A stretch of 64,000 bases of DNA from a virus, in the IMG/VR virus record IMGVR_UViG_3300029989_000006; one strand, given 5' to 3'. This document shows positions 4,381 to 52,487 of the stretch, piece by piece. The notes under the pieces were generated by a model. It did not search any database. It was given only the letters and a program-made list of their open reading frames with translations, and was not told the DNA's origin. How positions within the stretch are numbered: position 1 is the stretch's first letter; each line of letters starts with the position of its first letter. A program made the translations under genes and the position numbers.

Positions 4381-4400
4381 TTAGATATAATATCTGAATT

Positions 4401-20694: not shown

Positions 20695-20734
20695 AAATAC
20701 CCACAGTACAATCGTACTGTGGGTATTTTTTTTT
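20695..20734. terminator. hairpin terminator between the convergent arms (probably bidirectional)
   Basis: AAATACCCACAGTAC-AATC-GTACTGTGGGTATTT plus T run; A-rich on the other side. Confidence 0.9.
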
Positions 20735-23700
20735 ATTCTGATGGATGCATAAACTCAAACATCTTAAGATCTTTATTCATTAATTGTTCAAATGTTTTAT
20801 TTCCTCATAATACACTGTGTACATCTGTTGCAGTTTTAGTTCCTCAAGCTCAAAAAACTGGCTCAGTTTTTAAAGCTCCTAAAGTATTATTTCATAAATT
20901 TCCTTCACTTAATACTTTTTTATTTACGGATGCCATAAACTCTACTGTTCTTCCATCAATTCCATCAGTACCATTTTCTGCAATTCAGCCATCATAAATA
21001 GCCTTCATCATACCAAACAGTAAAACCATTAATAATGAATCTACCATTGCAAAACCTACTCTCTCATTTCTATGATCTTTATTTTTTGCAATTTCTCCTC
21101 AGTTTCCTTTTATAACATCTTGCATTAGATATCCTACAGAGTATAATAACCCTTCTTGTGGATGTCCTACTCATGCTAACATTGGATCTCCAGTATTTTC
21201 AGTAGTTGCTTTAAATCCAATAATTTCATCAGGATTTGTTTGACTATAAACAGGTTCTCTTCATAATAATTGACCTGTTTCCTCATCAGTTACTTGTTGA
21301 TGACTTCCCATCATACTTTTATCTGCAGAAACTGGTTTACCAAATCACATATTCATCTTACCTGGCCAGAATTGAAGTAATTGTAATCAGATTATTCCAT
21401 ACCAAGTATTATGTCACTCGGCTTGACTATCTTTATCATAATATCCATAAACTGTATCAGTAAAAGATTTAAATCCAGTTCTTTCTTTTTCAGAATAAGC
21501 TTGATCTAATAAATCAGTTGCTTCATCAAGAATTGGATTGTTTCCTTTAGCTAATTCTGTATTTCTTTCACCTAAAATTATTGTATAAAGATTTCTTTGT
21601 TCATTATATTTTAGATTATTCTTTGCAGGAATATATTGTCCATCAGCATTTTTATATTTTTCTCTATTTTGGAAATAATATTCAAATCGCTTATCTTGAG
21701 TTGGATCATAGTGTATATAACCTTTATCGTCTAAAGTATGTGCATAAAAACTTCCATCATGAATCATTTTTGCAATGAATAGAGATAATCTATTATAATA
21801 ATCAGGAATAGTATTACAAGCATACATCCATTTACTTAATCCTAACATAGCACCTCTTCTATTTGTCTGCATTTTTCTCGGTAAAGAATTAACATCCATA
21901 TTTGCAAATCCATAATAAAGATTTATTCCATCCATTAAATTTCATTTTTTAGACATTTTATTATCAACTGCTAACATAATCTTCATTGCTTCTGCTAAAT
22001 CTTTAATATTAAATGGTTTTTTTCCACCATAAATATTAAGGGCAGCCAATCCTACATTTTTATACAATCCAAATGTTAATTCCTTTGCCATTAAAGCAGG
22101 ACGAAATCCTAACATTGCAGCAGTTGCAATGGTTTTCCCTGATCGAACTAATCTAATTGCATCACTTGCCTCTGGATCAATAATAGGTTCATCAAATAAT
22201 CCTAATTTTATTCTATTAGTAATGTATTCTAATTGTTTAGATATGTTTTCTTTATTTTTTCCTGCAAGTAATTTCATTCATCAAACATATGATGTAATAT
22301 TTGGAAGAATTGCGTCAACATTTGCTTTTCTTATACTACTGAAAGCAACTCTATGAGCTATTGTATCTAAATCCAATTCATAATATCCTGGGGAATTTTC
22401 ATTAATTAGTCTAACTTTCATTTCATCTGATTGCATAGAATAAATATCATACATTTCATTGAAACCTAATTGTGTTTCTTTAATTCTATTTAAATCATTT
22501 TCTGAAAATTCTCTTGGATCTAAATAGTCCTTAGTTTCATCAAGTCATTTAGATACATCTTGTCATAATCCTGCTAATCCACTTTTTAAAATTCTATCAT
22601 TTCTATTAATTTGTTGAGAACGCATTATTGGCATTTTGAAATAATCTCCAGAAATAATACTCTTTATAATTATACCAGAAGTATCAGTTTTAGTAATAGA
22701 TTCTATACTTGTTAAATCAATTTTACCTCATAATTTTTCTGGAATATGTAGTCTATATTTTTTAATTTCAAATAACATTTGCTTAGAATATTCTTGTTCA
22801 GCCTGTGTTAGAGTCTTATCAGAATATGGATCTTTTAATGACCAACTATTAGAAACTTCACTGCCATCATGTTCTCACATATTTTTATTAAGAGATCTAA
22901 CATTACCAATTCAATTTTGTGAAAGATTTGAGTAGTTTATTTTTTTAAAAAATTCATATGTAAATGCAGCTATTGTAGTAGATTGTTTATACATTTTATG
23001 TCTAATACTAGAATTTGCTCCTGTAATCATTTTATTAATATTCTGTAAATCTACAGAACCTATACGATCAGGAGTATTAGTTTTCAAACCACCAATAATT
23101 CCTAAAATTCTTCTACCAGTTTTATCATAATCTGCTTGTTCATCTGAATAAAAAGCTGCTAATAAACTTTTAAAATCAGAGAAACCAATAGCAAAATTTC
23201 TCATTTGCATAAAATCTCCCTCTGGGACATCTCCTGATTTAGCAACAATTAATGAAGATAGAATTGCAAAAACATATTCAAGTCTGTTCTTAAAATCAAT
23301 TTCAGAACCAAAAGTTTTTTTCTTTAATTCTGGAAAAGCATCAGCAAGTTCTCTATGAATTTGTTTCAATTTATACAATTCCATTCCTTGATAATCTTCA
23401 CCATATTTTAAAACAATTTTTTCAACTGATGTAGACTCTAAATTAAGAACTGCCTCTTGCATTTCTGTAACAGCTCTATCTGTAAGATTAAGAAAATTAG
23501 ATAAATTTATTTTTGGAGTTATTCCTTTTGAAGTTAATAAATCAAAATATTGTTTTTGTATTTTATTTACATCAAAATATCTTGCCTGAGATCCCTCAAC
23601 ATTTAATGGTATTAAATTCTTAATTTTATTGAAATCTAAATCTAATTCATCATAATAATGATGAAAAAATAATAACATTTTTAAATATTCAACCTCAGCA

Positions 23701-25334
23701 AATGTTGTGTTTTTATCATATTTTGCATCACCATTTAATACAGTCAAACTAAATAAAACTAATTTATTACTTCTTTTACTTTTTAATAAGATAAATCCTA
23801 AAGAATCAAGTGCCATATTATTTTCAACAACTTTATAATCACCATTTAAATACGGAGATAGTAAGGCATTAACATGAAGGGTTTGGTGGTCATTAGCCAT
23901 CTTAAGAGGTAAATCCGATTTATTTAGAATTGCCTCAGAAATTTTATCCTTTAATTGCGTAACTCTGTAATAGTTATTTTCCGATAATTTCTTAGTATAT
24001 GCGTAAACTCTTTCTTTAAATTTTACCAGTTTTTCAGCATCTGATAAACCTGGTGCCCTAAATCTAAAATTTTCATCTTTAATTAAACCAAGTTCAAAAT
24101 CATCAATTTTACTAATAAATTCTAATTTATTATTTTTTATTGCATCTGCAATTATTTTTTCTGGATCATTTTCATCCTTAGATGTTTTGATCTTATATAA
24201 TGGGAATAAAAAAGCTAAATCTGCTAAAAATCTATCATTCTTTTTAGTATCATATTCTATATTAAACTTTTCAGGAATAATTAACTGAGCAGTTCTTGTT
24301 ATAGTACCAGTAGATTGTAAACCAGTATTTGCAGCAGATAATGATACAATTTTTCCTGCGCTAAAATTAATTGGATTAAATTTATTTAAAGTTGAACGTT
24401 CTCCAATACTGATTGGAATAACATTTATAGAAATAATATTTTTAGCATTAATATGTTGTGCTAATAACTGTCTTTGAAGTGCTAATTCTCAATCTGTTGT
24501 TAATTTCTTTGTTGAATCCCAGTCTGGATAATCACGTTTTGATAATTTTAATTCAAAAATATGAACATTTCCATCCTCATCAACTACAACAAAATCTAAT
24601 TTTCCTTTTAAACCAATGGCTCCACCATCTATAGTATCTAATATAACATTAGTTAATATAGTTCCTTTACTATTTAGAGTTGAATAAATTTTATATAATA
24701 CATCTTTAATTTTATCTTTTCAATCCTGACTTTCTCCACCTAAATGCCATTTATTCTTTTCAATTAAATCATCAATATTCTGTTCAACACTAATATTAAA
24801 TTCACCTTGAGAAAATTTAAGACTACTTAAAATTGAATGTAATCCAATTCCAAAATCTCTTAATCCTTTTTCTATTTCAATAACATCTTGAATATCCTTT
24901 GTATATTGTATGATTTTATTACTTATATCTGGATTATCAGCATATTGAGAAATTAGTTCTTTTAAACTTCAATCAATATGTGGATTAACTCCATCAGAAA
25001 TTAATTTCCTTTTAACTTCTGATAGTATTCTATTTTCTTCAATATATTCAGGAGCTAATCTTTGTTTAGAAATTCCTAAAGTTCCTAAAAACTCTTCCTG
25101 TCTAGTAGTAATAAATTGTGAAATATCCATTTTACTTGGATCCATTGATATAGTTTTTCCTCTTGGAAATTGATCTTTAATTTTATCTACTATACTATTT
25201 ACAATTTCATCAGAACTAAAAATTTTTGTATTTTTTAGTTCTGATGTATTTTTATAATAATATTCAGTTAATCCTGTTAAAGTTACAGGATGTTTAAAAT
25301 TATCCTTTAATAAGTAAGTACAATTTATTGACAT
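20733..25334 (-). CDS. giant virion cargo protein (~1533 aa, TGA=Trp) with PD-(D/E)xK nuclease-like domain
   Basis: Track fragments starting at 25334, 23900, 22277, 21935 share one frame; starts MSINC; GKLDFVVVDEDGNVHIFELKLS at ~24545-24606; TAA at 20733. Confidence 0.85.
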
Positions 25335-28300
25335 TGTATTTCTAAATTATTGTTTTTAATTTGTTCTGACATTCATTCACGGAAATTGGTTTCAAATAAA
25401 ATTAAACTTTCATTTCCTATTTCATGAGAGAGTCTGGGAAATCTTGATTCCATAGTAGTATTTAATATAGAAAATATATTTGAATCTTCTGTTATTGGTT
25501 CTAATTCTAATTTTATTAAAGCACTATTTATTGCATTGCTAAATGATTTATAATCAATAATATTTTCAATTCCAAGATTAATTTTATTAGTTAATTTATT
25601 AATTAATTCTTCTTCTAATTCAGATAAATCTTCTGTTTTAGAATTAGAAAGTAATTTATAATTTTGTAATACTTCTTCATATGTATTTTTACTTAAATCA
25701 TTGTATTTTAATGCAATAAAAAATAAATGTAAATACTCATGAATAATATTTTGTTTACCAGAATTAAGATTTGCAGTATTTATAACCAATCTTTGTCCTT
25801 GTTCATTAGATTCTATTCAAGCCTGTTTAGATTGAAGATCAGTATTATATACATGATCTACATCAATATTAAAAATTGTTGAAAATCTTTTAGTTAAATC
25901 TGAAAGTATAATTCTATTTCTAGCAATAATATCCTCAGGAGAATTATTATTTTCACCAATTTTAAGATCTAATTTTTCTAATTTTGATCCAATTTTACGA
26001 TTTCCTTTCTTTGCATAAATTCACATTATATCATTAGAATTTTTAGGAATAGTTTTAATTACTGTTAGAATTTTACCCCTGTGTGAAAATGTATTAAATT
26101 CTATAGTAATGTTATCAGCTGAAGCAGAAGTAATTTGATATAATTTGTTTTGAGAAACCATATTTCCATCAACTGTCTTAGCTAATACAATATACGCTCC
26201 AGGTTGTAATAATTCTCTTTTTTGTTCAGTTTTTTCCTGAAAATTAGAATTATACAATGCTTTATTAAATCTTTGATAATAACCTCTTTCTAAAGTTTTT
26301 ACATATAATCCAGTTCCGTTAATATTTCGTTTAAAATTAATTGCATTAATTAAATCCTCAGTAACATTAGTGTATCCTTCATAGTCTTTTGGATTTTTAT
26401 TATATATTTCTTCTGCAACAAGTGTTCCTATATTTAATTGTCCACTTGGCATTAACAAAGCTGTCTGAAAATCTAAATTACTTGGGATAAAACATAACAT
26501 TGAAGTTTTATCTTCTCCTTCATATAAAGTCTGTAAAAATAAATTATTATATTCTATATTTTCAATAGCAGAACTTCTACTAATATCACGTGTAGTAATA
26601 AAATTAGTTCGTTTTGATAAATCATTATCTACTAAATATTCATTTATTGGCATTAAAGTTTTTTTATCAAAATTAATCATTGCTAATAAATTTTTATCTT
26701 TATTTAGTATTTGATAAATTTGATTATATTCAACTCCTTCATTAGTTTGCTTTGGTATTATAACAAAGTCTCCTTCTGAACTTAATTCAAAATTATCAAA
26801 ACTTGAATAAGAAAATTTAGCTGGAGATTGATCTTTTGCAATTCTATTTGCAAATTCTGACATTTCTTGAAATACTTCTCTAGTAACCTGTGGTTTTTTT
26901 CTATAAACATTTACTACAGAATCTCTACTAATTGCTTCAGAATAATATTTATCATTTCTTTTTACTAATATATAAATTGATTTTTCATCATCACTTATTC
27001 CAAGAACTTTATTATATCTTCTTTTACCTTTTTCATCAATATGAAGTATATAATCAGATGAATCAATAGGAACTTGAGGATTTCTTCTTAATTCTATTGC
27101 ATCATAATTTTTTAATGTCTGAACTTTTTCTTCCCATGTTTGGTCAGTAAATTCATCTTCAAATGCATTTTTATGTGTTATTAGAGTTGTAATTCTATCT
27201 AAATTAACATATGGATTTTCTAATAATACATCTTGTTTTTCACCAGTATAAACTTTATTAAGCAATAATTTAGAAGGAGAAACATCTTTAATAGTATTTC
27301 AATAAGTTTTTACCTCAGTTTGTTTAGCCCCATTCTTTATTTTTTCTTTTCTAGTTTCACTTTGGACTCTACCACCTCTTACTGCGCTAGATAAAACTAA
27401 TGATTTAGGTAAATATTCACCCTTATTTGCTTTTATAACAATTGAATCATTTGAATTTATTTCATTTGCTTCAGTAGTATTTAGTATTTTAGTTCCTTTA
27501 GCTAATTTTCTAAATTTTATTTCTCCTAAATATATTCTGTCTGTGGCAATTTTAATTTTTCCTTCACTATTATAAAATCCTCTAATTTTTATTCTATCAT
27601 CCTCTATATCCACATCAACAGGAACAATATATCTTGTATAATCCTCTTTTTTAGGAATTAATATTAAATCTTGACCAAGACTTAGATTGGATTTTATAAA
27701 ATTAACCATAGATTCTAAATCTGTAAAATCTTTAGAAGTTTCTTGTGGTGAATAATAATCATCCTTTTTTTCTAGATACTTCTGAATCTTTATTCCCTTT
27801 TGAGTTAAAGTAGATTTTAAATAATCATCAGATATTTTACCATATTCCTCTGATGCTTCTTTATTTTTATCTACTCAATTTGTTTCTCCTAAATTAAAAA
27901 TTTGTTTTAAAAGTAAATCAAATTGTGTATTTAAAAGGAATTTTGAACCAGTTATTATATTTACTAAATCAGCGTAAATGGCATCTCTATTAGGATTTTG
28001 AGATAAACTGTCTAAAATTGGATTCTGAAATTCTAAATTTTCATTTTCTCCAATAAATTTTCCAATAAAAAATTCTTCTGGAGTATATTCTTTAGTTATG
28101 CCATATTTTAATAAAACATTTGATAAATTTTCTTTAGACATTAAAGATCCCTGATGTTTAAAAATTCCATAGAACATAGAGAGATAATTATTTTTATCAT
28201 AAACTATTGTTGGATCTTCTGTTCCATTATTTATTACAGTAGCTTGATTTTGATCAAATTGTCCTGAAATAAATATTTTCTTATGTTTTAAAGGTCCTTT

Positions 28301-28855
28301 ATAAAAGTTATTTAAAATAATAAATAATGCATTATCTGTTTGTGCTTCTATAGTTGTATCACTAAAACTGTTTAAATAATCCTCTAATTTATTTAATTCA
28401 TCTATTGGAGCAGTAGTATTTAATACTCCAGTAATGTTTAGATTATTAAAATAAGTATCAATTTTATTTTCTGAAGCAAGATTTAATAATTCCTGAAAAT
28501 TAATCTTCTGATATTTAGTTCCATTAATTTTTTTATAATCAAAGGCAATATCATAATTAAGATTCTTTCATATTGCATTTTGTAATGAATTATTAGTTAC
28601 CTTCTTACTAATAAGTTCATTTAATTTAGTAATAACCTCGGAATCTTTAGTGTTTCTAATTATGTTATTTATTTCATTTACTGTTAAACCTGTATGTAAT
28701 GAATTTAAATAGGCAAGCAAATTACTAGTACCTTCTTCTTTAGAAGTTGGGAGTAATTCTAGAAATTTTTGATCCTGTAAAGATATTTGGTTTACAGTGG
28801 AGGGGATTCTTAGTTCCCCCCCATTTGGTAATTTTACATAAAAATAGCACTTCAT
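25325..28855 (-). CDS. large virion cargo protein (~1176 aa, TGA=Trp) with C-terminal zincin HExxH motif
   Basis: Fragments 28864, 28177, 27709, 27265, 25789 share one frame and end in TGA; starts MKC (TAATG overlap); IIHEYLH at 25727-25747; ends IQCQ-TAA. Confidence 0.82.
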
Positions 28856-31800
28856 TATATACAATTATAATTAATTATTAATCCCTTTAAGTTAATTAGG
28901 TTTTTTAATTTATCTACATTTCTAGTTAACTCTAAATTTGCGTTATTTACTATATCCATTTCAGTATTAATAACATAATCTCCATTTACTAATGATAAAT
29001 TATTATTAACTCCAGTTGTTAATTTATTTCTAACATTTAAAGTTAAAAATAATAAAGTATTTAATTTACTTCTATAGATTTCTATTCTAATTGCTGGATT
29101 TTCAATTGGTAATAAATCAAGTAGTTTTGCTTCTCCTCTATCAATTGCAACTGAATATTTTATATATTCTCCTGCAATATTATTATTATTCTTTATATAA
29201 TCCTCAAACATTGGAGTTAATCTCTTATCTCCATAAGAATCATTATTTACAATTAAATTATAAACATAAAGTAAATCTTTTCACTGCATATTAACTCCTC
29301 TTACATTTGGTATTTTTACACACTTTTGATCAATTTCATTAAATTGATTTAATAATATCTGAAATTTTTCCAAATTAATAGTTGAATTTAAACTGCTAAT
29401 AGGAAAAGTTGGAGTAACCTGTGTTGTGGAAATATTAAAGCTATTTTTAACAGTAGATAATCTTAATATATTACCTAAATCTGTATTTTGTTCATTTTTT
29501 AAAATTTGTAATCCTAATACTTCTACCATTCTTTTAAAATTAGCAATACCAGTATCAGTTTTTAAATCAATTATATAATCAGGATCAGTAACTTTTACTG
29601 TTACAACTTTTCCTTGGTCAAATACTGTAGGATTTACAAGTAAAGCTCCTGAAGTTGAAATCTTAGCTAAATCATCTCTGTATAAAGTTATTGAGTTTAT
29701 ACCTGCTAATCTTAATCAATCCTGAACTTTAAATACTAATGCTTCAGCTTTTTCTCCATTTTTTAATCAAGAGGCAACAGCTAATTTATCATATAAATTA
29801 ATTATTCTTCTAATCATAACATCATCAATGTTGATAGAAAATGCAGGATTACCTCTTCAAGTTTTAATTGCTCCTTTATTATATTGTTGGATATTTAGAG
29901 AATTTGTTCTGATAATATCACGCATTTGCGAAAATATAAAATTATACTTTTTTGACGATATTAAAAGTATATTATTAATAATACCAACACCATCAATCAT
30001 AGCTTTGAAATGTGGTGAATTTTCTATCACATCAAAAATATTTATTGTATTTTTTATAAGATTGTAATAGCTTGTGGTTATTTTTCTATAATTTTCATTC
30101 TTTGGATGCATATAATATCTAAAGTCAAACTGCCCTCCCAATAAACTTACATTTTTAGTTTCTTCAACACCAGTTGAATTAATAAAAGATATCTCTACAT
30201 TATTTGCTAAATTAAATATATCTCTAACATAACCTCTATCCTTTTCTCCTTCATGCAGAAGTGGATTTTGTCTAATGACTCTATTAATTAATGAAATTCT
30301 AAATTGTTCAGATGTATCCCAAGTTGAACTATCTCTTAATTTTATTGCATCCTGTCCAAATATGGCACCCTCTCTATTTCATAGAATTTGATCAAATCCA
30401 GTTAAGAATCTATTTAATTCTATAGAATTAGCAGCAATTTTCTGATTAACTTTTAACATACTTGCTAAAATCTTAAATTCTTGTGCTCCTTCATAAATAT
30501 CATGAAATGTTTCTAGATCTTTAAATTGCTGTAATATAGATGCCTCTAATTGTTTCTTTTCATTATCAAATTGTGTTGAAATTAATATAGTTTCTTTCTC
30601 AGTTTTTGGAATTATTTGAGAATATTTTTTCTCAAGTTCTTCAATTAATTTTGTTTTATCATTATTTAGCATTGTTTCATAAGATACTAATAATTCATTA
30701 ATATATAATTTCTTTGGATCTTTAAAATAATTTGTATTTAATCCTTTAATTAGATATTGAACAATTGGAGAATTCATATATTTTACTACTTCATCAATTG
30801 AAATTCCTAATGAAGTTAGGTATAAATGGGTTCCTAATAATTCAGTTATTCCATTAATTTTTGCCATAACTAACTCCTTTGCATTATCAGTTGCACCTGA
30901 TATAATATTTGAAACAACTACTGCAGCTCTATTGTTAAGAACATCCAGCTGTTTATTTAATTTAGTTAATCCAAAAGCATCTTCTAATTCCTTAGTCATT
31001 TCTTTAGATATATTAATATCTGCAATTGAGGAGATATTATATGATTTACCATTAATATTAAAGGTTTTCAAGAAAGCTTTATTACTTAATCTTAAATCTT
31101 CTGGTTGAGTTTCTAAATGTTTATATCAATTATTGTAATAATTAGTTAATGCTAAAAATACTTTTAATCCATTTGCACCAATACCTACATCAGCCTTACC
31201 AACTGCTGCCTCTTTCTGTTGTTTATAGAAACTTAACATATCTCAATTTGATAAATTTCTATAACTTGCATCCATTCCTGCATTTTTTGCAGCATCATGA
31301 AGTGATTCTACATCTACTGGTATAGAAGAAAGAAATTGACTACTTGGGGCAGAAATAACTTGTCTAATTCTTGCAATAACAGAATTTTTTACTGCATTTT
31401 TAGAATAAATAAATTTCTTAAATGAATTATGTTTATTAACTAAATTTAAAACTAAGTTTGCATATGGATTTATATTATTTTTAATAACAATAACATCTAC
31501 TTGATTAAGTTTTCTTAAGATATTTCCAATAATTTTTGCTTCATCTAAAGATAAATTAATATCTGAAAGATCTTCAATATCACTTGGAATATTAGTTATT
31601 TTTGAAAAATCTAATATATCTTGATCTAGATTAATACCATTATCATTAAATGTGTATTTTTTATATGAAGGTAATGGAAATTTCTCTAATTCATTTAACT
31701 CCTCAACTGTTGAATAATTTGATAAATTAGTTCAAGTATCATATTGACCACTTTTATTAAATCCATATCCCATGATATATGCTTTATCAATATCGAAGTC

Positions 31801-34800
31801 AGATCCTTGAATTCAAATCTGTCATATTGATACATAGGCATCATTTGATTCTGTACTAAAATATCCAATATTCTTCATCTCCATTGCAGATTGTAAAGAT
31901 TGTGCTGGAATTCTAGAAACAATAAACTGATGTGATTTCTGCCATGAAGCATAAACTCTTTCTGATAAAGTATCTAATACTCCCTCTTTGTTATTAATAA
32001 ATCAGGTATTATCTAATACTTTTGGAGATTCTCTATATCCAGTAAAGTTTTTAAAGATTGAAAATGATAGACTATTTAAATCATACTCTGTAAGGGTGTG
32101 ATCTCTATTACTTTTAACAACATTATTAATCTTATTATTCATTAAAGGAATAATTGATGAAATCTCACCTTGAAATGAGTTAATAAAATCAGAAACTGTT
32201 TCTTTAAAATCTCTATATATAACAGTACTGTGTGTATCAGTTTCTTTGATACGAATTGGATCACCTATTTTTATATAAACAATATCATAATCTGGTCCAA
32301 TTTTAATTTCTGAATTTTCTGGTTTCTTATATAATTTTTCTCCTGAATTAGATAATCTTGTCTTTTCAATATAAGATTTTCCATCCTTTACTTTTGGTAC
32401 AAGATCAAAACTGTTAACTGGCTCAACAATACCTGTTAATTCTTTAACAAATTTCACAAATACTGGATTTTGTCCACTTTTAAGATTTAAAACCAGGTCA
32501 AAGGTTTTTGTTGGATTAACAACAGTGATATTCTCACCTTTATTAGTAGTTAAACTATTATGTATATCTACTACATTAAATTCCTTCTCTAATTTATTTC
32601 TAAAATATTTTGATCCTAATTTGTTTATCTCTACAATTGATGCTCCATCATTATCAAATACTGTTTTGTATATATTTGGCAATATTAGTTCATTAGGTTT
32701 AAAAACATAATTTTGAACATCAACTAATTTTGGTAATCAGAAATCTAAAACATCATTATTGATCTTTTTTAAATCATCACCATTTTCAGCTTCTGTTCCA
32801 AAATATGCATTAAAATCAGTATGCTCACTAACAAATGGTAAAAGTTTAGAACTATTTAAAAATTCTAAGTTTCGTTCAGTCCATTTATCAAGTATATGAT
32901 TAGCTTCTTTAAAGTTATCAACAGCTTCTTTATTGTTAGGAACTATTGTTAAATTAAATGCCTTTAAGAAATTTTGTAAGATAATAAAATCTTTATTATC
33001 TGGTAAAATATTCTCTCCTGCTTTATATCTAGATAATAAGAATTTTAATTTAATAGAATCCGTATCAAATAAATTATAACTTCTAAGTTCTGTAGATATT
33101 GTAGTTTCTGTATTTACAACAACCTGTATTGGAGTTATAATATCAAAAGTTATTTCTGAAGGTTTTAAATCTCTTGGAATATTTATAATTTTTTCACAAG
33201 GTTCATTATTTGAATACATCTCTTTAAAGTCCTGATAAAGTTTTGGGGAAGATAAATTATGTCTTATTCCTTTAATTTCAACTATTTCTCCAGGATTAAT
33301 TTTGCCAACTATTGTTTTAATTGGTTTTAATTTTTTATCCAAATATTCTTTTACAATCTCCTCGCTATTTTTACCTATAATTCCTCTTTCAACTGAATCC
33401 TGCATTGCTTCTTTTATAATATCTTCTTGCTTTAAAATATTTCCTTCTGCATCTTCAAATAATTGAATGATTTTGTGTGATGGATTTAAAATAGCACCTA
33501 ATCCTGAATAATACCTTGTAATAAATTCAGAATTTAATCTTCCAATCATATGTTGAACAAATTTACCAAAGAAATGTTGATTACTAAATGGTAACATATC
33601 TCCACTTCCAAAACTTTCACTAATGATTTTAGATAAATCATTTGTTTGACTATTATTTAAATCTTTTGCAAATTCTTTTGATAAATTTAAATAAAAATCA
33701 TTTAAATTTTTATCATCAAGTGAATCTAATGTTTTTAAATATGGAGAAGCTGCTTCTTTAATAATCTGAGCAAGATTTTGATAAACTTCATTTGCAATCT
33801 GAGAAGTCATTGGAGACTGAGCTAATGTAGAAATTAACTGTGTAATTTCTTTGATTTTAGAAGCATCAGCTGTGTGATTTGCATCCAACTGTGGACCCAT
33901 ATATTTATGAGAAACAGTTGTATAGTTTAATGGAGTATTATCAATTCAATGAGTAGATGGATTTATATTTGTAGCTCCTGCTTTAATTGCTGAAAGATTT
34001 GACATAATATGGATTAATCTATTTTTTAAAACATAATTACCTTCTTCATTATATGAAGTAATAATGTTAAATAATAAATCATTAGATGATTCATCTAGAT
34101 TAAATTTACTATCAGTAGAATATTCTCCACCAAAAACAGTTCATAAGTCATAAAGTGTGTTAATTTTGGTAGGATTATATTCAATGCTCTCAAATTTTTG
34201 TAAAATATTATTATATTTTAATAATTCTAGAGATAATACATTATTTTCTATTTTAAGTTTAGAAATTTTGAAATAACTTCCATCTTTTCAGTAATATTGA
34301 TTTAGCCCATCTTTTACAAATAAATTTATATTAATAGGTAATCCTAAAGATTTTTCTTGAAGATTTTTAAAAGCAATTGATGAATATTTTGAATTTCTAA
34401 TTTTATCATTAGTTAATACGGTTTCTGCATCTTTTTTAATCATTATTCCATAAGGAGTTAAGAAAGTACCAAATTGTTTCTTTGTACCTTTATATCCTTT
34501 TCCTGGATAAGATTCTTCAACCATTTTGGCATATAAATATGAAATTACAGATGATCCATCATGAATATCTTGTTTATGACTTGTTTTAGCCATATTATAT
34601 AATTCATCCTGTAAATCACTGATTGTTGCATGATTAATGTTATTTGGAACACCAGTTACTTTATTATGTACTGGTAGTTCAATAACCGCTGTAGCAACAA
34701 CGTTTCTTTTACCCATATTAGCAATTCTTCAATGTGCCTCATTTTCAAAGTTCTTACTAAATTTATCATAATCTGTAGATGCATAATCTTCTTGTAATGC

Positions 34801-37713
34801 TATACCTTTAGTTTTATGCATATACTCACCTTTTAAGGTTAAATAATGATACTCTTGTTTAAATAAGTTAGTTGCTAATAACCATCTTTTAAGTATTGGA
34901 TTAACATTTCCCTTACTATCATAGAAAGCATGCACATTTTCTTCTTCGTTATCTACAACAAAGCTCTTATTATAATTTTCTGAATTTATTCCTAAACTTT
35001 GTAATAAATTAGTAATTACCTCTGGATCTGCATCAGAATTTTTTGTTCTTTTTGTAGAGTTAGATAATTGATCAAGTTCTTCAGCAGAAAATAGTTCATT
35101 CTTACCTTCATCTTGTAACTTAGTTATTGCATTTTCAAATTGTTTATTTATAAATTTATTAAAGTTTCCTTTATTTGAAAATATTTTATAGTAATCTCAT
35201 ATATTTTGATTTATTGCAATACGTTTACCATAGAATGTATAATGTCTTTCAAGTTGAAAATTTACATCAGGATTTTTAAGTCTTGCCTGTCTTATTACTT
35301 CTAAAAATGCATCAGATTTACCCTCGAATTGTTTTAGATATTCATTAATTTTAGTTAAATTCTCAGCAATAGGACTTGTTAAATTTAATTCTAATCCCAA
35401 ATACTTATATTGTTTAATTATTTCATGAAGATTGTCCGTGAAGAAATTTAATGATTGAGTTCTTACTAAATCTTGTAAAGCTTCTTCTGATAATACATTT
35501 TGACCAGATCTATTTCCTATAATACTTTTATTATCATAAGAAGCATTTAATCCAAATAATTTTGATAATATACTATTCTTATCAGAATAATTACCAACAA
35601 TTACTGGAAATACTTCTGATTCTGCTTCTGGTCTAGTAAATGGATTCACAAAACCATAAAAGAAATCCGATATAAAGTTTTCTAATACACTAAAAGAAAA
35701 TGCTGACTTACTTTGACCTTTATTAACTAATTCAAGTTTTATACCAGTTCCTTTTAAAATAGAATTATTAGCTAAAAGACTTTTATATGTAATGTTACCT
35801 GTTTCTTTCTTTTCAAAGTCAAATCGTTCTTTTAATGTAACAATATCATTGTTAAATAACGTAGGTGTTTTGAATGAAGGAATTTTCTCTCCAGTATATG
35901 TTGAAATAACTGTGATTGGAGTTAAAACATAATTATCCAAGAATACATCTAAAATATCCTGTATTTTAGAGTTTAATTCAGTAATTACCTTACTCTCAGA
36001 CTGAACATTTTCTCTATCATCATCATTAACACTTTTTTCATTCTCTGCAATTCTTCCTAATAAATCATTATTATTAATTGCATCTAAATAATCCAATATT
36101 TTACCTTCAACACTAGAATTATTAGTAGTTCATTGTTTTATTAATTCCTCAGCCGAAAATGATTTAATACTAATTCCTAAAGTTCTTTGAATAAATTTTA
36201 CCAAGTCAGAAGATGTACTAGTTAATTTTTTTATTCTTTCCAAAGATTTTGCTCTATCTTTTCCAAAAATAAATGTTTCTGGAGAATTTAAGAGATTTTT
36301 TAGATGAGTATACACACTTACTTGTAATGCTATCTTCTCTGCATTATGTGAGTATAATTCTTTTACATCCATTTGACTGGAGTTACCATTGAAAGTATTG
36401 TAATAAGCCCCATAGCAGTTATTTAACACTTGTGTTAATAATTCTGTTACAGGTTGAGTTTTGGTCTCCTTTTTAGCTATTTCATTTTTAAAAATACTTA
36501 AGGATTGAATAATATCAAATTTTGGTCTGAAAATTAAAAATTTCTTATTATCAAGTCCAAGAAATCCTTGTTTTTTAGCTTGACTTACCTTTTTTATGTA
36601 TCATTCATACATATTAATAGGATCCTCATTAAAAGGTTTTCACGTTGGGTCATTAAAAAGTTCTATTGAATTTTCTAATTCAAATACATGCATTGTTGCA
36701 GCTAAACTATATAAATGCTTTGTTTCTAGAAATTGACCAGTAGGATTTCCTCAATGATCATAATGTGGTATAATAGCAATAGTATTCTTTGTTAAGTCAT
36801 CTGATAAAGTTTCTGCTGCTTCAGACATATGTTCATCTTCTGCCCAATACTCAGTTTCAAATCCTTTAGTAGTTGCAGTATATTTAATACCCTGAATTGG
36901 ATCTTCAAATGTATTGAATTCAGAAAAATTAACTTTAATCTGATTTCTGTATCTTGTAAATAATATATTGTCAAAGTTAACTAACATAATAGCTGCATTA
37001 TACGCATCTAATTTTGTTCTTAAAGCTCCATTTGAAATACTTCCTTGTAAATTTGGAATCTCTTTACCACTAGGTAATATTACTAAATCTTCATCAGAAG
37101 CAATTACATCTTGAAACTTACTAATAACGGGTTGATATAATGTATAATTAATTACACCTTTTTTATTATAAATATTTCCAATAAATTTATCTTTTTGAAA
37201 ATATAAATGCCCATTTTCTAAATTACCTCCTGTATATAAATATCTAACAATTCTCTCAAACAATCTATTCTTTAGATTCTTTAAACTTTGATTTAATTTT
37301 ACTGGATCATTAATAAATTCTGAACTATCTTTATCACCAAGTTTAGTAGCCCTCATAATTAATGCATTTGAACTTTCTAAAAAGTATTTTTCAGCAATAT
37401 GAAGTGTATGAAATAAATCAGAAACTATTGGAGAGTTAAATAAACAATCAATATTATTAATTGGTCTGTTTTTATTAATTCTATTAATAGTTACAGCAGG
37501 TTCTAAAATTTCACTTAACTGAATTCCATAATCTGTAATTATAGAATTAAAAGTACTCAGTGATTGCTCACTAAGTACTTCTTGTGCTTCCATAACATTT
37601 GATACAGTTACCCCATGTTTATTAAATATGTCTAGAATTTCTTGTTCAGTTTCTATTTTACGTTTAACTAAATCCTTAATAATCTTCTGTTGTTTTTCTA
37701 TAGTACATGCCAT
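28855..37713 (-). CDS. virion-packaged single-chain RNA polymerase (~2952 aa, TGA=Trp), crAss-like/phi14:2 gp66 type
   Basis: Eleven same-frame fragments; SRIPAQ followed by QGSDFDIDK (DFDID at 31786-31800); also HDGS and SAIKAG; starts MAC, ends NYNCI-TAA. Confidence 0.92.
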
Positions 37714-37728
37714 AAATTTGTTCTTTTA

Positions 37729-40700
37729 TTAACACTCAAAGAAATCTTCAAGTGATTCATTATTTTTATATTTTCCAAAATCAATTTGTAATTTATCTAA
37801 AACATAATTCATTAAATTAGATTCTATTCCAACATCATGTTTTGGTGCTAGAAACTCATTCACTTTTATTACACTCAAGTCTTTAATATGATTTAAAAAC
37901 TCTGATAAAGTTAAACTTTCAGATCCATCTATACTTGGGAAAACTTTAGTTTTCCATTTCTTTAATAATTCTTCAAATAAAGTATTATCATCTGCATTAT
38001 CAGATTCTTTAACATCACTTAATTTGTCTTTAAATATACTAACTAATTTCTGAACTTCTGATAAATCATTATATCCAGGAATTGGAGTTAATATTTCACC
38101 TATTTGAGCAATTGCTACTTCCTTTGTAATTGGCAAAATAGGTTTAACAACTTGTTGCATTTCAGTAAGTAATGCATCAGTTTTCTCCTCAGTTTTCTTA
38201 ATTATAGTTTCTGGTTTTATAACACTACTTTTTGTAGAAAGATCAATTAATAATCTTGGACCTTCTGGCATAATTGTAGTATATACATTATCAAAAACTA
38301 ATGGACTTTCAACTCTTTCATATTTTTCAGGACCAGTTGAACCTTTTGCACTGACAATTGGTACATTAAAAAATATACTTCCATCCTGTGCTTTGTCAGA
38401 TTCTTTTGCTTCTCAAACTGAAAAGATTTTTCCAAGAGTACTATTAATCTCTTTATAACGACCTCTAATTTCAGGTAAATACTTTTCATTAGAAGCAATT
38501 ATTGCAGATTTTCTATATAACTCAAATATATTTCAGAAGTTTCTATACCATTGTGTATTAGTACTTCTAACCAATTTTAACAGTTCATCTCTTAATAATT
38601 TTCTGTCTAATGGCATATGTTTACTTTGAAAATCTTCAACTGTTTTTAGAAGTGTTTCAATTACTAATCTTAATTTACTATCTTTTTCATTAGTAATAAG
38701 AGAAATAATATCCTTTTTCATAACATCTTTAAAGCTGTCTGTGTAAGCTTTTATAAACTCAGTTGATTCATCTTCACTAACCTTGCCTTGTTTAAAAAGT
38801 TTTATATATAGTTCAGAATTTTCTGTTGCAATTTCTATTAATTTATCTAATACTTGACTACCAGAAAACAAACTATCTCTAAGAGTTTCTGCTTGTTTTT
38901 GTGTATTAGAATTAGTTAATTTATCAATTAATACTTCATCAATTACAATTTGTTTAATCTCTTTTATATATCTTCTTCTACTTTTTAACAGTATTAATTG
39001 TACTTGTTTTGGATCCTCTATGAAAGTAACTGCAGCATATGGTTTTCCTCTAAACTTTTTATATAATGATTCTAATCCTAAAATTTTCTTGCCTGGATTA
39101 TATGGATCATCAACATCTTCATCCTTTCTTGGCTCTCCAAAATTGAATTTTTCTATTTCTTCAATAAATTTAGCTTTATTAGTAGAAAATAATTCATAAT
39201 GAATTTCATTAGTAAATACTCCTCTGTTATAAAAACTAATTCCAGGAATTTTCGAAATTTCTGTTAAAGTTAATCTTTTTAATTTATTATAATTTATATC
39301 AGCACCTTGAGTAGTTATTCTTGTTGGACTGATAATAGATATATCTTCAAATTTAACTTCAACCTCAGATTTTGCAGAGGTTAATAACTTTTCATAAGTT
39401 TTAATTGAATTAGAATCTTTTCCAAAAACTGCAGCAACAGTATCTAATGCACCAAAAGTAGCTAAATGTATGTAATAATCATTATTTGGAGAAATATTAA
39501 CCTTTAAATATAAATTTACATGGTTATCATCATTCTTCAGATGTTTACTAGAATTATCAACCATACCTTTTGCAAAAGGAGCATTAGCTAATTCATCGTA
39601 TTTTGTATTGATTAATACTAACTTAGTAGAATAATGATTCGGGATATATGCTTCAGTATTTGTAACTAATCTCATAATTTCATTATTAGCAGGTAATTTA
39701 CCTTGCAAATTTCAGAAACTATATTTTAAACTTACCAAAGAAGAAGTTAATTTATCAAACTCATCTTTTGATATTACTTTCTGATTTTCACCTAAGCCAA
39801 ATATAAAAGATAATCCAGAATTTAAATTAGTTCTATCATTCTTTTCTAATAATACTTTATCACCATCTACAATAGTAAACTTAACATTAATATCATTATA
39901 AAATGTATGAAGCATAAACTTATTATCATCTGGTTTTGTTTTTAATTTATTATTTAAAACAACTTGTGGTTGGGGCACAACATGATTTACTTCATCATCT
40001 GGCTTACCAGATATAGAAACTTCAGGCGATATTTCATCAGCTTCTTCAATTACAGCATCCTTTTTGAATTTAAAATTATCATCAACTAATGAAAAATTTG
40101 GATCTAATAATTTTGTTAGTTTCTCAATTCTTTTTAATTTAGTTTCTTTAACTAAATCCTCATTTATTGGTGTAATAAAATTAGGAAAATCTTCTGCTGT
40201 TGAAATTAAATTCAATGTAGTAGAATCCAATGTATTATTAATTGACTCATCATTTATTATAATAGATGCAGATTTTGATCTTGACATATATGTGTAAAGA
40301 TTTCTTAATGCACCTAAAATATGATTACTTTTTATTTGTGAAGTTTTAAAGATAAAATAATTAACTTCTGATCCCTGAATATTATCTTGAGTAAATAATT
40401 TCACATTATCCATGGAAATATTTGCTTTAGTTAATTGTTCTTGTATATTTGGATTTAATGTTCCAGAATCAGTTAAAATTCCTATAACTGATTTTGGATT
40501 TTCCTTAATAATGTTAACTAATGCAGTTAACACTTTAGTTGGAATTATTTTATCAGTTGTAATTAAATCACCACATAAAGTTTTATCATCTAGATAATAT
40601 TTCAATAAAATTCCTTTATCAATAAATCCCATAATCTTACTAGAATCTACTCTATAATCATTAAAGTGTTTAATACTTTTACGAACCAAGGAAGAAACAT

Positions 40701-43700
40701 AATCATTATCTTCTCTTTTCTGTGAATTTTCGGCTCTAACAACTAAATTTATAAAGGGTGTAAAAATTCCAGAAACCCTGTCAACATTAAAACTTGCTCC
40801 AAAGAATTTTGCACCATTTTGTGATTGATCTCCAGCTCCTACAATTTTAATTAATTTTCCCTCAGCTCAGGCTTTCTTAGCAATTTCATTAATTACTCCT
40901 AATTCTAAAGCAGTGAAATGTGTTACTTCATCAATAAATAATAAATCTGGAAGATTTGTAACAGATTCTTTAATAGTAATTTTATCTGCATTTAATATGA
41001 TGGAATTACCACTTTGAACAGTTACATATTGAGATTTGTCTTTATTACTATTTATATCATTAATTATTTCACTAATTCCTAGTTTATCAAATAATGTACT
41101 TTTATTATACTTATTTATTGTAAATTGTTTTGTATCTATACCTTCTAAAACATTTGTTTCTAATAAATCAGCTTGATCTAATTTTGGTCCAGCCAACCAA
41201 ATAGTTAAATTAGGATTATTATTCATCAGGAATGTAATAAGTGATTTAAAAATAACACTTGTTTTTCCTGTTCCTGCATTTCCTAATACATATGAAATAA
41301 AATCCGTTGTAACTAAATCTGGATCAGTAGTTAATTTTACAATTGCTGAGAATAATTCAGGATTTACTGTTGAAGCATATAAGATTTCAGCTGCTAATTC
41401 TTGAGAATAGAATGGGACTTTGTTAAATCCTTCCATCTTTGCTTGTGCAAGAAACTTATTATTAACATCCTTTGGATTTAACACCATTGTAGAAGCCAGA
41501 ATTCAAACAAAATCTGTTCTACTTAGTTCTTTTACATCTTTAGTAATTTCGTCAGTACCATCAATATTATAAATTGAATCAATATTATTTTTAAATAATA
41601 AATCATTATCCGTTAAAATCTGCGTAAATAATTGAATTAATTCTGTATTATTTAAATTTAAATCTTTTACGTACTGATAAATTGCTGATCTTATGTTTAA
41701 TAACTGTCCTTCTTTATCATCTAGATTTGTTAACAAATCTGTAAGATCTGGAAGTGTAGGTTTTTCTTTAAAAATAACTGGTTTACGAAGAATTTCTTTT
41801 AATTCTTTTATAACCAAATTAGATGTAGCTGTTCTTGTAAGTTCAGATTCATTATATATTTTTCCTGAGTTTGATTTAGATAATTCTTTTAATGTCTCCA
41901 ATTTAACTTTAATTCTGGCCAAATCTTTAAGCATTAATGCTGCAATATCAGATGGAACTGTTTTTAAACTTGTTGTTGGTGAAGTGATTTTATTTCTTTC
42001 TAAAAATTTCTGTCTTGTAACAATAAATCCAGATGGATGTTCAAAATCAACTTCTGTTAAACTTGTTCCTTCTACAACACTTTCTAATAATGAAATCATA
42101 TCAATCGCATTACTTATTTGTGTTGTTCTTATACCTTCTATCAGATAATTTGAGATATTAGATGTTTGAAATAATGAAAGTTCTTCATTTTTTAAGATAT
42201 CAAAAATTGACAATTTTTTAATACCTGATGAGGTTAGCAAAGGTACAATTTTTTCTGAAAGAAAATCATAGATAGAGTTTGAAATGAACTGATTTTTATT
42301 ATCAGTGATTTCTTTTAATTCTGTTAATGTATTAAAATAATCTTTATTAGTATTTTTAAAATTTTTGAAATCATGTAAAATTCCTAATAAATCTCCAACA
42401 GAATCTAATAGTTCTATATGATCTAATGAAATATATTTAGGTAAATTATATTTCTGTAAAACAGTTTCCAAATCCTCTGTATCAGAACTTAATTCATTTT
42501 GTATTTTTTCTAAATCTCCCAGAATTTTATCAGAATTTTCAATTAAATCTAATAATTCAACATTAGTTAATTGAAGTTCTTTAAAATAATTTGCTTTTAT
42601 ATAAGATAATTTAGTATCTAATCTTTGTTCTATTAGTATTACTAATTCTCTATCTAAATTTTTAGATTGTTTAATCTCTTTAACAATTTCTTCTAATCCA
42701 TAGTCATTGATTTGAAAGAATTGTGGAGTTTTTACAGCGAATTCTAATTTATTTTTAAGAGTCTGATATTTATTTAGTTTATTTTTAATTGAATTAAAAT
42801 AATCAAGAAATGATTCTAATATACTTGTTAGATTAAATATATCATCATTATTAATTAACTCTTTTATATCATTATTTTTATAATAATTATTAAATAATGT
42901 AATAACTGAAAGAAGGGCTTCATATTTCTCTGTATTTGATAAATCATTTACTGACTTACCTAAAACTTTTGCCTTGTTAGCATATAAATCTTTAATAGAG
43001 GAAACATTTGTTGAGATATTTGGTGTATTTGTTAGAAAATCAATATCTGCATCAGTTAACTGTAAATCAGCTTGTTCTGTTTTTAAATTTAAATTATTTG
43101 TTATAATTTGATTTTGTGCAGTTTCTGTTTGTTCATAAGGCATCAAATTTACTTTTAATTTCTTATCATCCAATTCTTTCATCTGTTTTTCTATGTCAAC
43201 TTTCTGAATTGAATCTGCAGAATCTAATTGAGTAATTAATTGATTAATTTGTTGATCTATTTGTTGATCATATTCTACTACCTTTGCATTAAAAGTATTT
43301 AATAATACATCATAATCAATAGCTTCTGATGGTAAATATGAGGCAATTGTACTGATAAAATTGTCAATAAATTCCTTCTTAGTTGTTCCACTTTCTGCAT
43401 TAACAACTTGATTTAATTCTGCTTCTGTTAATTTCTTCCCAGTTTCATAATTAATCAGAACATCATGGTCTATTACTTTTTTAGCAACATTAGTTTTTAT
43501 AACATCTCAACTAACAATCTTTTTACCAATTTTTTGTTCAATGTTATTTACAGTCGCTCTGAATTGCTCCAGATTAGCTTCACGATGTTCAGGATCCATA
43601 TTCCACAATTCTAATTGACGAGAAATATCTAATAATCCTTTAAAAGTTTTGTCCCTTTCATAACTATATCCATTAGTCATATATTCAACTAGTTTTGGAT

Positions 43701-46428
43701 TAAAGTCTAGTTCTAATTGTTTATATGCTTCAGTTGCAACTCCTAAATATTTCTTAAAATCAGTATTTTCTTTATATTTTTTAAATTCATCATCAATTCT
43801 TTTTTGAGTTACACCAAATCCTTCTGGTTCTAAGTCATGATAATTCTTTCCATAAGTAATTTTAGTAAAAGTATCTTTATCAATTACAACTCATTTATCA
43901 CTTATTTGTTTATTTAAATACATAGACATTTGATCGAAATATTTTTCAGCAGTGTTGCCATCTAACATTTCTTTTACTTGTTTTTCATAAATTGAACTTT
44001 CTTCTTTCAATTTTTGAATTTGCTTAGTATTTTTTAATGTATCGGTTTCAGATTGTTTTAATTTCTCAATTTCTAATACAATATCATGAATTTTATTAAT
44101 TTTTTCTGTATAATCAGATAAAATAATTCCTTCAATTCCTATAGTTTTTCCTTCTTCTTTAGATTTTTTAAGAGAATCAAGAATTAAAGAATCTAACATT
44201 GTTTTTCTAATAACCTCATCATCAGATTCTCCAAGTCCTGTTGAATTAAAAATTCCATCAAGTCTTTGAATTATTCTAATTGTTTCATCAGCTACTACAT
44301 CTGCTTGTGAATAATTTTTATTCAAATTAGACATTGTACTATCTCCAACATTATCCCCAATATTTGTTATTACATTATTTTCTACATCAGCTCCTTCTGG
44401 AGTAATGTATTTATTCCCTAATTTCTTCCTTTGTTTATTAACTGCTGCTATGATTTCCTCTGTATGACCATCTGCAATTAATTGATATAAATCTTTCTTA
44501 GTATCCTGTGTTAATGCAACACTATTCTTTGGATCTAACAATGGTTCAATAACTGAGCGTTGATACTCAAACATTGCACCACCAATTACACCACCAACTA
44601 AATTAGATAAATATTTTTGAAATCCCTGAGCACTAAATGTGTCATCCCAAGTATTCATAGAACCTTTTTTCTCAGTTCATCCTAAATAAGACATTAAATC
44701 CACAACTCCAGTAGACATATCCTGAACAGCTTGTTCGGTTACTTCTTCAACACCTTCAATTACTGCATTTTTTCACATATTCTCTCCAATAATAGATGGA
44801 GTTGTAAAAATATCCTCGATTGTGTTTTTAAATTTTGAAACTACTCCTGCGAGTTGAAATTTACCTTTTGCCATATTAGTTTCAGTTGCTTTAAAACCAG
44901 TTTGTATTTCCTCCATATATGGTAGAACTGCTTTACGTAACATAGCTTTATTAGTTTCTTCAGTATATCCTGTACTTTTATCCAAAAACCAATGACCCAT
45001 TCTATTATTCATCATGATTCCATACTGTCCAGCTGCAGCTAATAAAGTAGCAAAACCTGCACTTCTTTTATCATAACCACCAGTAATTGCCTGACCATAA
45101 ATATCACTAGTTGTAGACATTGCCATATATCCTAAAGATAATCCCATAGATAAAGCACTTTGTGCTTTTTCAAATGATTTAAGTTGAGGAAGTTTTTCCA
45201 TAGCTGCCTTAGCCATTACTTCAGATTGTTCTGCTGTAATAGTTCCAGTTATTTTTGCAAAATCTACTTCTTGCCCAATTTTTGTTGCTAATTCACTTTG
45301 TTTTTCAAGTAGTGCTAATTCTTTAGATCTCATAAAAATCTTTGATAAACTAGCTGCAGCTCTTTGCTCATATAATTGGGAAAATATAGAACTAACCATT
45401 GTACCCATTTGCTCCACTGATAAAGCAGATTTACTTCCTTCCTCAGATACTGACTGTTGGACAAATTTTGCCATATAATTTTCTGCAGAGGTAGCTAATC
45501 CACCCATAGCATCAGCTTTTTCTCCTAATAACATTCCTTCTAAGGATTTGTAGAAAGTAGGTAAAATAGAGGCCATTGTAACAGCTGCTCTAATTCCTCC
45601 ATAAACTGTTCCTACTCCAGGTATTAAAAATGGGGCAATTTCTGCTGCAACTTTTACACCTATTCCTGCAAGTGATTTATCTTTTTCATCTGCATCAAAA
45701 ACATTATACTTATCAGCTAATGTTCCATCAGTAGTTAATATATCATTTGGATTAACAACTATTTTACCATAAATCTCACCATCACCAAGTTTTTCAATAA
45801 AATAATTTCCATCTTTGTCTACTTTTCATTCACCTTTTTGGTGTTTTATAGCTTTTTGGCTTAATGGATCAAAATGAGTTCCATCTTCATTATAAGTTGC
45901 ATATACTAAAGTATCCCCAAATAATTTCTGAAGAACACCTAAATCATTTACACTTTCTGTTGACCATGAATCAGTTTTAGGATCATATAATTTATTCTGT
46001 TGTGCAAGTTGTTTTTGTGTAAAATCGTTTTCAGTAATACTGTTTATTCCAGTTCTACTAAATAATTGTTTAGATGGATTAAAATCCTTCTCAAATTCAA
46101 CATCAATTTTAAAAGTGTTTGCATTTTTTGGTCTAGAAACATCAAATGGACTGTAATATACAGTATTTATATCTTTTAAATACTCATCATCAGTCATTTG
46201 ATAATAATGACTCTTTGCTAAATTATAAAAATCATTAAATTTTATATCATCAAATTTTCCATCTGCAGTTTTAAACTGATTCTGAATAAACGGACTTTGT
46301 TTATATTCATCTTGAGTTAACAAGGATGTGTTATCAGGATTGATATTTACTGATAACATATCCTGAGTTGTGGCAGTTGGACTACTTAATGTAGCAACTA
46401 ATATATCATTAGGTTTTCTAATTTCCAT
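37729..46428 (-). CDS. giant virion cargo protein (~2899 aa, TGA=Trp) with SF1 helicase domain
   Basis: Eight same-frame fragments; GNAGTGKT (41260-41283), FIDE, GAGDQSQ, QGSE, YTYMSR; N-terminal Gly/Ala hydrophobic segments and EGVEEVTEQ; ends FFEC-TAA. Confidence 0.88.
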
Positions 46429-52133: not shown

Positions 52134-52159
52134 GTTTTTACGATTTTTAAATTAAACAA

Positions 52160-52192
52160 TAAAAGGGAGACAGATCTCCCTGCTTCCCTTTT
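52160..52192 (-). terminator. Rho-independent terminator (imperfect stem)
   Basis: Minus strand AAAAGGGAAGCAG-GGAGAT-CTGTCTCCCTTTTATT after the TAG at 52201. Confidence 0.7.
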
Positions 52193-52200
52193 AAGGTAGG

Positions 52201-52482: not shown

Positions 52483-52487
52483 TTTAA

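Follow-up and report, generated by a model that had tools for sequence, protein, structure and literature searches.

Why should giant phage proteins that are nearly free of cysteine (Cys) keep one at each end that faces a neighbor, and none at the two ends of the series? The question is raised by a four-gene block in the IMG/VR virus record IMGVR_UViG_3300029989_000006, analyzed here as one stretch of 64,000 nucleotides (nt), hereafter the window. Four consecutive minus-strand genes, A to D, encode what are probably packaged cargo proteins: a helicase-like protein, the virion RNA polymerase (vRNAP), a zincin-motif protein, and a nuclease-like protein. Each of the six inner termini has a Cys 0–4 residues from its end, the two outer termini have none, and the arrangement recurs in relatives with fewer or more proteins. 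The source is a divergent TGA-recoded crAss-like gut phage.

The Four-Gene Block and Its Terminal Cysteines

Reading the block requires translating TGA as tryptophan (TGA=Trp). The standard code yields only scattered short open reading frames (ORFs) across the region; TGA=Trp resolves it into six long minus-strand genes and removes 59 in-frame TGA codons from A to D (10 in A, 21 in B, 6 in C, and 22 in D), which bears out the statement of a first-pass annotation of this DNA that the pattern is visible only after recoding. The order on the minus strand is up2-up1-A-B-C-D, the same as in the genomes MT835470 and MT835492. The first-pass annotation had placed the feature at 25320–37734, an interval limited to B and C with the codons at the junctions; all four genes together span 20733–46428, and their products have a combined mass of 978 kDa. 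The genes, with lengths in amino acids (aa), are the following:

37729–46428, minus strand: gene A, first link of the proposed chain; 2899 aa, 328 kDa; begins MEIRK and ends FFEC; SF1-helicase-like P-loop; N-terminus without Cys, last residue Cys.
28855–37713, minus strand: gene B, vRNAP; 2952 aa, 338 kDa; begins MAC and ends NYNCI; Cys3 and Cys2951.
25325–28855, minus strand: gene C, extra link of the proposed chain; 1176 aa from the ATG at 28855, 136 kDa; begins MKC and ends IQCQ; Cys3 and Cys1175.
20733–25334, minus strand: gene D, last link of the proposed chain; 1533 aa, 176 kDa; begins MSINC and ends HPSE; Cys5, C-terminus without Cys.

A and B are separated by a 15-nt gap, and B and C overlap as TAATG, with the ATG of C lying on the stop codon of B. 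The four proteins contain 13 Cys among 8,560 residues: A at 1952 and 2899; B at 3, 90, 433, 1506, 2798, and 2951; C at 3, 788, and 1175; and D at 5 and 1173. Six are terminal and seven lie elsewhere, where the first-pass annotation had estimated about seven others in some 8,500 residues. Its terminal strings (MEIRK/FFEC, MAC/NYNCI, MKC/IQCQ, and MSINC/HPSE) match the TGA=Trp translation exactly, and its claim that all six internal termini, and neither outer one, have a Cys within five residues holds both by translation and by a check of the individual codons, all on the minus strand:

37732–37734, minus strand: TGT, Cys2899 of A (C-terminal residue).
37705–37707, minus strand: TGT, Cys3 of B.
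28861–28863, minus strand: TGT, Cys2951 of B (penultimate residue).
28847–28849, minus strand: TGC, Cys3 of C.
25331–25333, minus strand: TGT, Cys1175 of C, overlapping the ATG of D.
25320–25322, minus strand: TGT, Cys5 of D.

The 40 other proteins of the window, taken as a control, contain 1.06% Cys, with a Cys in the first six residues in 0/40 and in the last six in 4/40. At that frequency, 91 Cys would be expected in A to D, against the 13 observed. The chance of finding a Cys at all six inner termini is 8e-14 when 13 Cys are placed at random, or 3e-8 at the genome-wide Cys frequency. For the proposed chain, a terminal Cys is taken to be one within about 6 residues of a terminus.

The termini of B and C carry strand-like amphipathic motifs, namely I-x-F-x-C and I-x-I-x-C, with the form phi-x-phi-x-C at the C-termini, and M-x-C-Y-Y-Y-I-K-L-P; inspection of these termini found no conserved His or further Cys beside the terminal Cys. 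The Cys-free outer ends are also conserved. A starts ME[IT]xKPNDI[FL]VA (about 46390–46428 in the window) in most of its 120 homologues, and the C-terminus of D (about 20736–20770) shows a conserved F-R-x-x-E-[FM] motif ahead of an acidic tail. These outer ends possibly serve as docking or leader signals for the chain. At the C/D junction (25320–25334), the TG of D's ATG lies inside the Cys codon of C; here and at the A1/A2 split described below, a stretch of 15–19 nt across the overlap encodes both Cys of the pair.

Conservation Across Homologues

The terminal-Cys pattern, conserved at 20–35% identity, holds in about 180 homologues and in about 20 related genomes, where chains of 2, 3, 4, and 5 proteins all show n−1 facing Cys pairs and two bare outer ends. 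A search of IMG/VR with protein C for close relatives found none, and a word-index search returned only C itself. An exhaustive phmmer search with C collected 59 proteins, 18 of them full-length; all 18 (25–33% identity) start M-x-C and have Cys as the last or penultimate residue, and in most of them these two are the sole Cys in ~1,200 residues. Similarly, the C-terminal region of B retrieved 39 proteins of ~3,000 aa, with a Cys at position 3–6 in 36/39 and a last or penultimate Cys in 38/39; about two thirds have no other Cys, and an alignment of 15 sequences has no invariant Cys columns besides C3 and C2951.

The end proteins of the series behave in a complementary way. Among the 120 proteins listed in a search with the N-terminal region of A, none has an N-terminal Cys, 114 have a Cys 0–4 residues from the C-terminus, and in 75 this is the single Cys of a ~2,900-aa protein. 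For D, in the contigs fetched around these genes, a Cys stands at position 3–6 in 12/12 and a C-terminal Cys is found in 0/10. The comparison across relatives that the first-pass annotation had proposed thus shows inner Cys that are conserved and outer termini that are Cys-free. No account of a terminal-Cys pattern was found in the accessible text of the crAss001 atlas, the phi14:2 polymerase preprint, and the N4-like ejection papers, or in wider full-text searches; the first-pass annotation, too, had known of no such description.

The four apparent exceptions whose DNA was re-read all proved to be gene-calling errors. In the B family, P0089 has an in-frame MKC start upstream that was missed by the gene caller, and P0096 is cut at an in-frame TGA, the full gene starting METSC. 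In the A family, P0183 and P0147 are likewise cut at in-frame TGA; with TGA=Trp their C-termini become QTCKIS and FTTNC, followed by genes that start MNC or MITC. Along the same lines, the true start of the D gene in contig L011 is MNC, and crAss002 gp33 is annotated from an upstream Met, such that M33-S-C35 corresponds to the MSC of p-crAssphage gp44. Public calls of these giant genes are often wrong (contigs L013, L014, L018, L019, and L011, and crAss002 gp33 in L015), through truncation at TGA in recoded phages, a missed M-x-C start, or, for crAss002 gp33, a start placed 32 codons ahead of the proper one; each of these cases came to light through the terminal-Cys rule. The rule can serve as an annotation aid that marks the true ends of giant genes and reveals recoded stops, introns, and mis-called starts.

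Splits, Introns, and Fusions

Read from the sequences, the terminal-Cys rule tracks polypeptide ends, not genes or homologous positions. In MT835492, which reads TAG as glutamine (TAG=Q), A is split into A1 and A2, which match the N- and C-terminal halves of the intact A of MT835470, and the cut is flanked by a new pair: A1 ends EACKVIA and A2 starts MQSNC, at a place where unsplit homologues have no Cys. MT835492 thus has a five-link chain. At this split (contig L002, 11499–11517), the TGC of A1 contains the TG of the ATG of A2, like the C/D junction of the window.

Breaks that do not end a polypeptide behave differently. B is interrupted inside GSDF|DIDKAY in MT835470 (contig L001, 23339–24400) and in contig L006 (6077–7140) by an insert that holds a LAGLIDADG_2 endonuclease gene (Pfam 2e-26) and a weak group I intron 3' signature (RF00028, E 0.016). 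In both cases no start codon precedes DIDKAY in the second exon, so the two parts of B must be RNA-spliced into one chain, and neither side of the breaks has a Cys, as the rule predicts.

Fusions remove the pair. Flavobacterium phage Fpv1 gp33, an apparent A+B fusion judging from its length and the position of its RNA polymerase (RNAP) match, has 4401 aa and a sole Cys at 4400, and gp34 starts MAC. The cr1_1 proteins gp076 (4551 aa) and gp077 follow the same pattern, with only the downstream pair kept. In p-crAssphage, gp44 is a fusion of gp50-like and gp49-like proteins (B+D) with no Cys at 2220–3105, the span that holds the joint; it keeps an MSC start, which faces the gp45 end SFSCM. The first-pass annotation had asked whether fused homologues lose or retain the junction pair, and at all these joints, A+B in Fpv1 and cr1_1 and B+D in p-crAssphage gp44, it is lost.

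The rule is also indifferent to strand and reaches beyond the window's clade. In crAss001, gp47 has its sole Cys at 2339 of 2341, gp50 has Cys at 5 and 2404 plus one internal, and gp49 has its sole Cys at 5; gp47 lies on the strand opposite to gp50/gp49, yet obeys the rule. The three cargo proteins of phi14:2 hold four Cys in total, all terminal, with Cys3 and Cys2179 in the polymerase, and Fpv1-like Flavobacterium phages, classified outside Crassvirales, follow the rule as well. Smaller proteins of the cargo region have C-terminal Cys tails in p-crAssphage (contig L004: gp47 and gp48) and crAss002 (L015: gp30), reading KQSCR, YRCGGHRR, and FRCGGKKKIA, with no obvious N-terminal partner; these tails may represent another, different link.

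Identity of the Four Proteins

Plain sequence searches with the window's proteins fail, which marks this clade as very divergent: BLASTP against the proteins of crAss001, phi14:2, and p-crAssphage gave no match, a PHROG search returned nothing for A, B, C, D, or the 623-aa and 1274-aa upstream proteins, and B had no match to PDB 6VR4 in PDB sequence (phmmer) or profile searches. 6VR4 is the phi14:2 vRNAP, called gp66 in the literature and tagged gp077 in GenBank. An hhalign comparison of the B-family profile with phi14:2 gp077 reached 93% probability (E 3e-7) over 350 columns around the catalytic site. Residues 1969–1980 of B read GSDFDIDKAYIM, and the same catalytic block stands in crAss001 gp50 (1483) and phi14:2 gp077 (1361). 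The motif maps to the following interval:

31786–31800, minus strand: DFDID catalytic motif of the two-barrel RNAP (B aa 1972–1976).

The other three proteins are recognized by motifs. A has a Walker A motif, GNAGTGKT, at aa 1716 and weak matches to SF1-helicase Pfam families, and its relatives match AAA_19, AAA_30, and UvrD_C_2; homologues of D match PDDEXK_1 in two relatives. C has an HExxH motif, HEYLH, at aa 1039–1043. The accessible text of the phi14:2 polymerase preprint describes a zincin-like module in gp65, and in p-crAssphage a zincin-like module is fused into gp45; C is this module, since HExxH is invariant in the 18/18 full-length C homologues. In the window's clade it forms a protein of its own, whereas p-crAssphage and phi14:2 carry it as part of other cargo proteins. 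From homology and position, we infer that A to D are present in the virion and are ejected.

Proposed Neighbor-to-Neighbor Links and Their Alternatives

We consider it moderately likely, from the comparative sequence evidence, that a link, most likely a disulfide, joins the C-terminal Cys of each protein to the N-terminal Cys of its successor, giving an ordered concatemer. The first-pass annotation had proposed this pairing from the window only; that the C-terminal Cys belongs with the next N-terminal Cys is now strongly backed by conservation, by the Cys-free outer ends, by gain at the split, and by loss at the fusions, while the chemistry of the bond, the threading, and the release are what we infer from it.

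The mechanism can be rationalized as follows. Selection would have purged nearly all Cys from the cargo proteins, as in other ejected phage proteins, and would have kept one within a few residues of each terminus facing a neighbor, the purge of all others preventing wrong links. A disulfide between neighbors would form in the assembled or released virion, where strand pairing of the B and C termini may bring the thiols together, and an A-B-C-D concatemer of about 978 kDa would result. With links within 0–5 residues of both chain ends, the product would be nearly linear, topologically almost one polypeptide, and could therefore pass the tail as one thread. The exit order would be A, B, C, D, after which reduction in the cytoplasm would free the enzymes from one another. 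This fuller scenario, in which a disulfide-concatenated 978-kDa pseudo-polypeptide is ejected through the tail in fixed order and split into enzymes by cytoplasmic reduction, is one to which we give slightly less than an even chance.

Several features of related phages form its background. According to the accessible text of the crAss001 structure paper (PMC10172136), the virion packs gp45, gp46, gp47, gp49, and gp50, and partial unfolding is needed at tail constrictions. The available phi14:2 literature describes gp66 as carried in the virion and entering the cell. Ejected proteins of N4-like phages avoid Cys, and PMC11445570 cites an earlier suggestion that this avoidance reflects passage through a periplasm with disulfide-forming enzymes.

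Five points weigh against links of this kind. The cytoplasm is reducing at assembly and the gut is anoxic, which leaves the timing of disulfide formation unexplained. A CxxC motif search of the window found no convincing thioredoxin-like CxxC protein or thiol oxidoreductase. The C-termini of B and C look strand-like, meaning that their Cys may belong to folded domains, an arrangement as compatible with a stapled complex as with a thread. Self-closure of B and C, with A pairing D, is likewise permitted by parity alone. Finally, the A homologues P0128, P0165, P0167, and P0173 and the B fragment P0084 stand as apparent exceptions.

The alternative that survives best, and which we nonetheless regard as unlikely, is that the terminal Cys staple a folded complex in the capsid, such as an RNAP holo-complex with helicase, protease, and nuclease, for co-packaging and stoichiometry, with no single-thread ejection. 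The conserved strand-like motifs at the B and C termini speak for it, as does the prediction, in the accessible text of PMC10172136, that the crAss001 cargo proteins are folded and helical; moreover, all the comparative evidence set out above applies to it equally. It leaves unexplained, however, why the links lie within 0–5 residues of the ends and why other Cys were purged, as a staple is possible anywhere on an interface.

Thiol chemistry of another kind is improbable, whether the thiols hold a bridging metal ion, carry a covalent adduct, or attach transiently to the portal, the capsid, or DNA in packaging. Thiols are the most reactive side chains, the pattern proves only a need for thiols at the ends, and the first-pass annotation had itself allowed a metal bridge. 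However, a single Cys per terminus would supply two ligands only, with no conserved adjoining His or Cys, and attachment to a third party predicts neither the Cys-free outer termini nor the joint gain and loss of N- and C-terminal Cys.

Self-closure, in which B and C each pair their own N- and C-terminal Cys while the single terminal Cys of A either joins that of D or remains unbonded, is more improbable still. It is compatible with the parity counts in every genome, but every fusion or split would force partners to be swapped. The A+B fusion drops the C-terminal Cys of A and the N-terminal Cys of B, the B+D fusion drops the C-terminal Cys of B and the N-terminal Cys of D, and the split of A brings in a Cys at both of the new ends; the Cys lost together are never partners under self-closure, whereas under neighbor-to-neighbor pairing they always are. 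Links between neighbors are much more parsimonious, because fusions and the split remove or add exactly the facing Cys pairs, and because two-protein chains allow an intermolecular pair only.

A by-product of the DNA is hardly credible, whether it came from start signals that overlap stops, from translational coupling, or, the recoded genome being AT-rich, from chance: an ATG one base out of frame does force Cys or Trp where the Cys codon overlaps the next ATG (the window's C/D and the MT835492 A1/A2 junctions), but most junctions have no such overlap (A/B has the 15-nt gap, B/C reads TAATG, and relatives show gaps of 2–170 nt), the N-terminal Cys are not accounted for, crAss001 gp47 and gp50 lie on opposite strands, and chance amounts to 8e-14 to 3e-8 for this window alone, which together rule out both overlap artefact and chance.

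Split inteins were considered and rejected. No Hint or intein domain was found in Pfam at E<=0.01, the N-terminal Cys is preceded by 2–5 ordinary residues, and fused homologues carry no inserted module at the joint.

Comparison with Known Systems

The window's block resembles the RNAP cargo block of Crassvirales (crAss001 gp47/gp50/gp49, phi14:2 gp078/gp077/gp076, and p-crAssphage gp45/gp44) in having giant co-oriented genes after the tail genes and small Cys-free cargo genes, a GSDFD[IV]DK two-barrel RNAP motif, and the same terminal-Cys parity. It differs from this canonical block in several respects: chains of the window's clade comprise four links, or five in MT835492, against the canonical two or three; its HExxH protein is separate and has Cys at both ends; its genes need TGA=Trp; and its similarity to the canonical proteins is detectable by profile only, around the catalytic site.

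The ejection operon of Schitoviridae (N4-like phages; gp50/gp71 vRNAP, gp51/gp72, and gp52/gp73) shares with the window a giant RNAP packed in the virion with helper proteins and a strong suppression of Cys, as far as the accessible text of PMC11445570 describes it. However, the N4-like enzyme is one ~3,500-aa T7-like polymerase chain without any Cys, whereas the window has several chains, terminal Cys that are kept, and a two-barrel DFDID motif. Membership in the N4-like group, which is defined by a T7-like vRNAP with no Cys, was rejected for the window, as its B has the two-barrel DFDID and conserved terminal Cys.

In AB toxins such as the diphtheria and botulinum toxins, a single interchain disulfide holds a chain during its unfolded passage through a narrow channel, until reduction in the cytosol sets it free. 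The proposed chain would share this working principle by analogy, with no homology; the toxins have one link, which arises from cleavage of one precursor, whereas the cargo chain would have up to four between separately translated proteins. Bonds between different virion proteins are not foreign to these phages. The accessible text of Bayfield 2023 (PMC10172136) reports inter-subunit disulfides that stabilize assemblies in the crAss001 virion, at the tail and portal vertex; those bonds are structural, inside a rigid assembly, unlike the end-to-end links between ejected proteins proposed here.

Neighboring Genes and Further Observations

Upstream of A lies a pair of proteins that are not part of the Cys chain:

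46438–52133, minus strand: two upstream proteins, 623 and 1274 aa; zero Cys.

By position, these two resemble the small cargo proteins of crAss001. They belong to a run of five consecutive minus-strand proteins at 46438–53320 (623, 1274, 93, 197, and 83 aa), all Cys-free, which probably represent further ejected or cargo proteins. An upstream 1468-aa protein of the window matches a virion structural PHROG.

In-frame TGA codons cluster in the window's late genes on the minus strand, where one gene can hold up to 23, and its plus-strand replication genes have few; no tRNA genes were found in the 64,000 nt. Small thioredoxins lie near the cargo block in some relatives (contig L007, 19994–20257) and in p-crAssphage (L004, 30978–31256), and the corresponding position of the window (19597–19860) holds an 87-aa ORF without Cys.

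Implications for Crass-like Phages

Previous work, namely the crAss001 atlas and the phi14:2 polymerase studies, raised the question of how about 0.7–1 MDa of folded enzymes pass through a narrow tail. The window adds a four-link chain, with the zincin protein as an extra link, and a five-link relative formed by gene split; intron breaks, which nature supplies as negative controls; counts across whole families (120 A, 39 B, and 18 C homologues); and an extension of the rule to the Fpv1-like Flavobacterium phages. A conserved end-to-end tether, if true, would supply both an order and a mechanism of ejection, and would account for the free tolerance of gene fusions and splits in the cargo block. 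Covalent concatenation of cargo, if true, would amount to a new principle by which the most abundant phages of the human gut deliver proteins.

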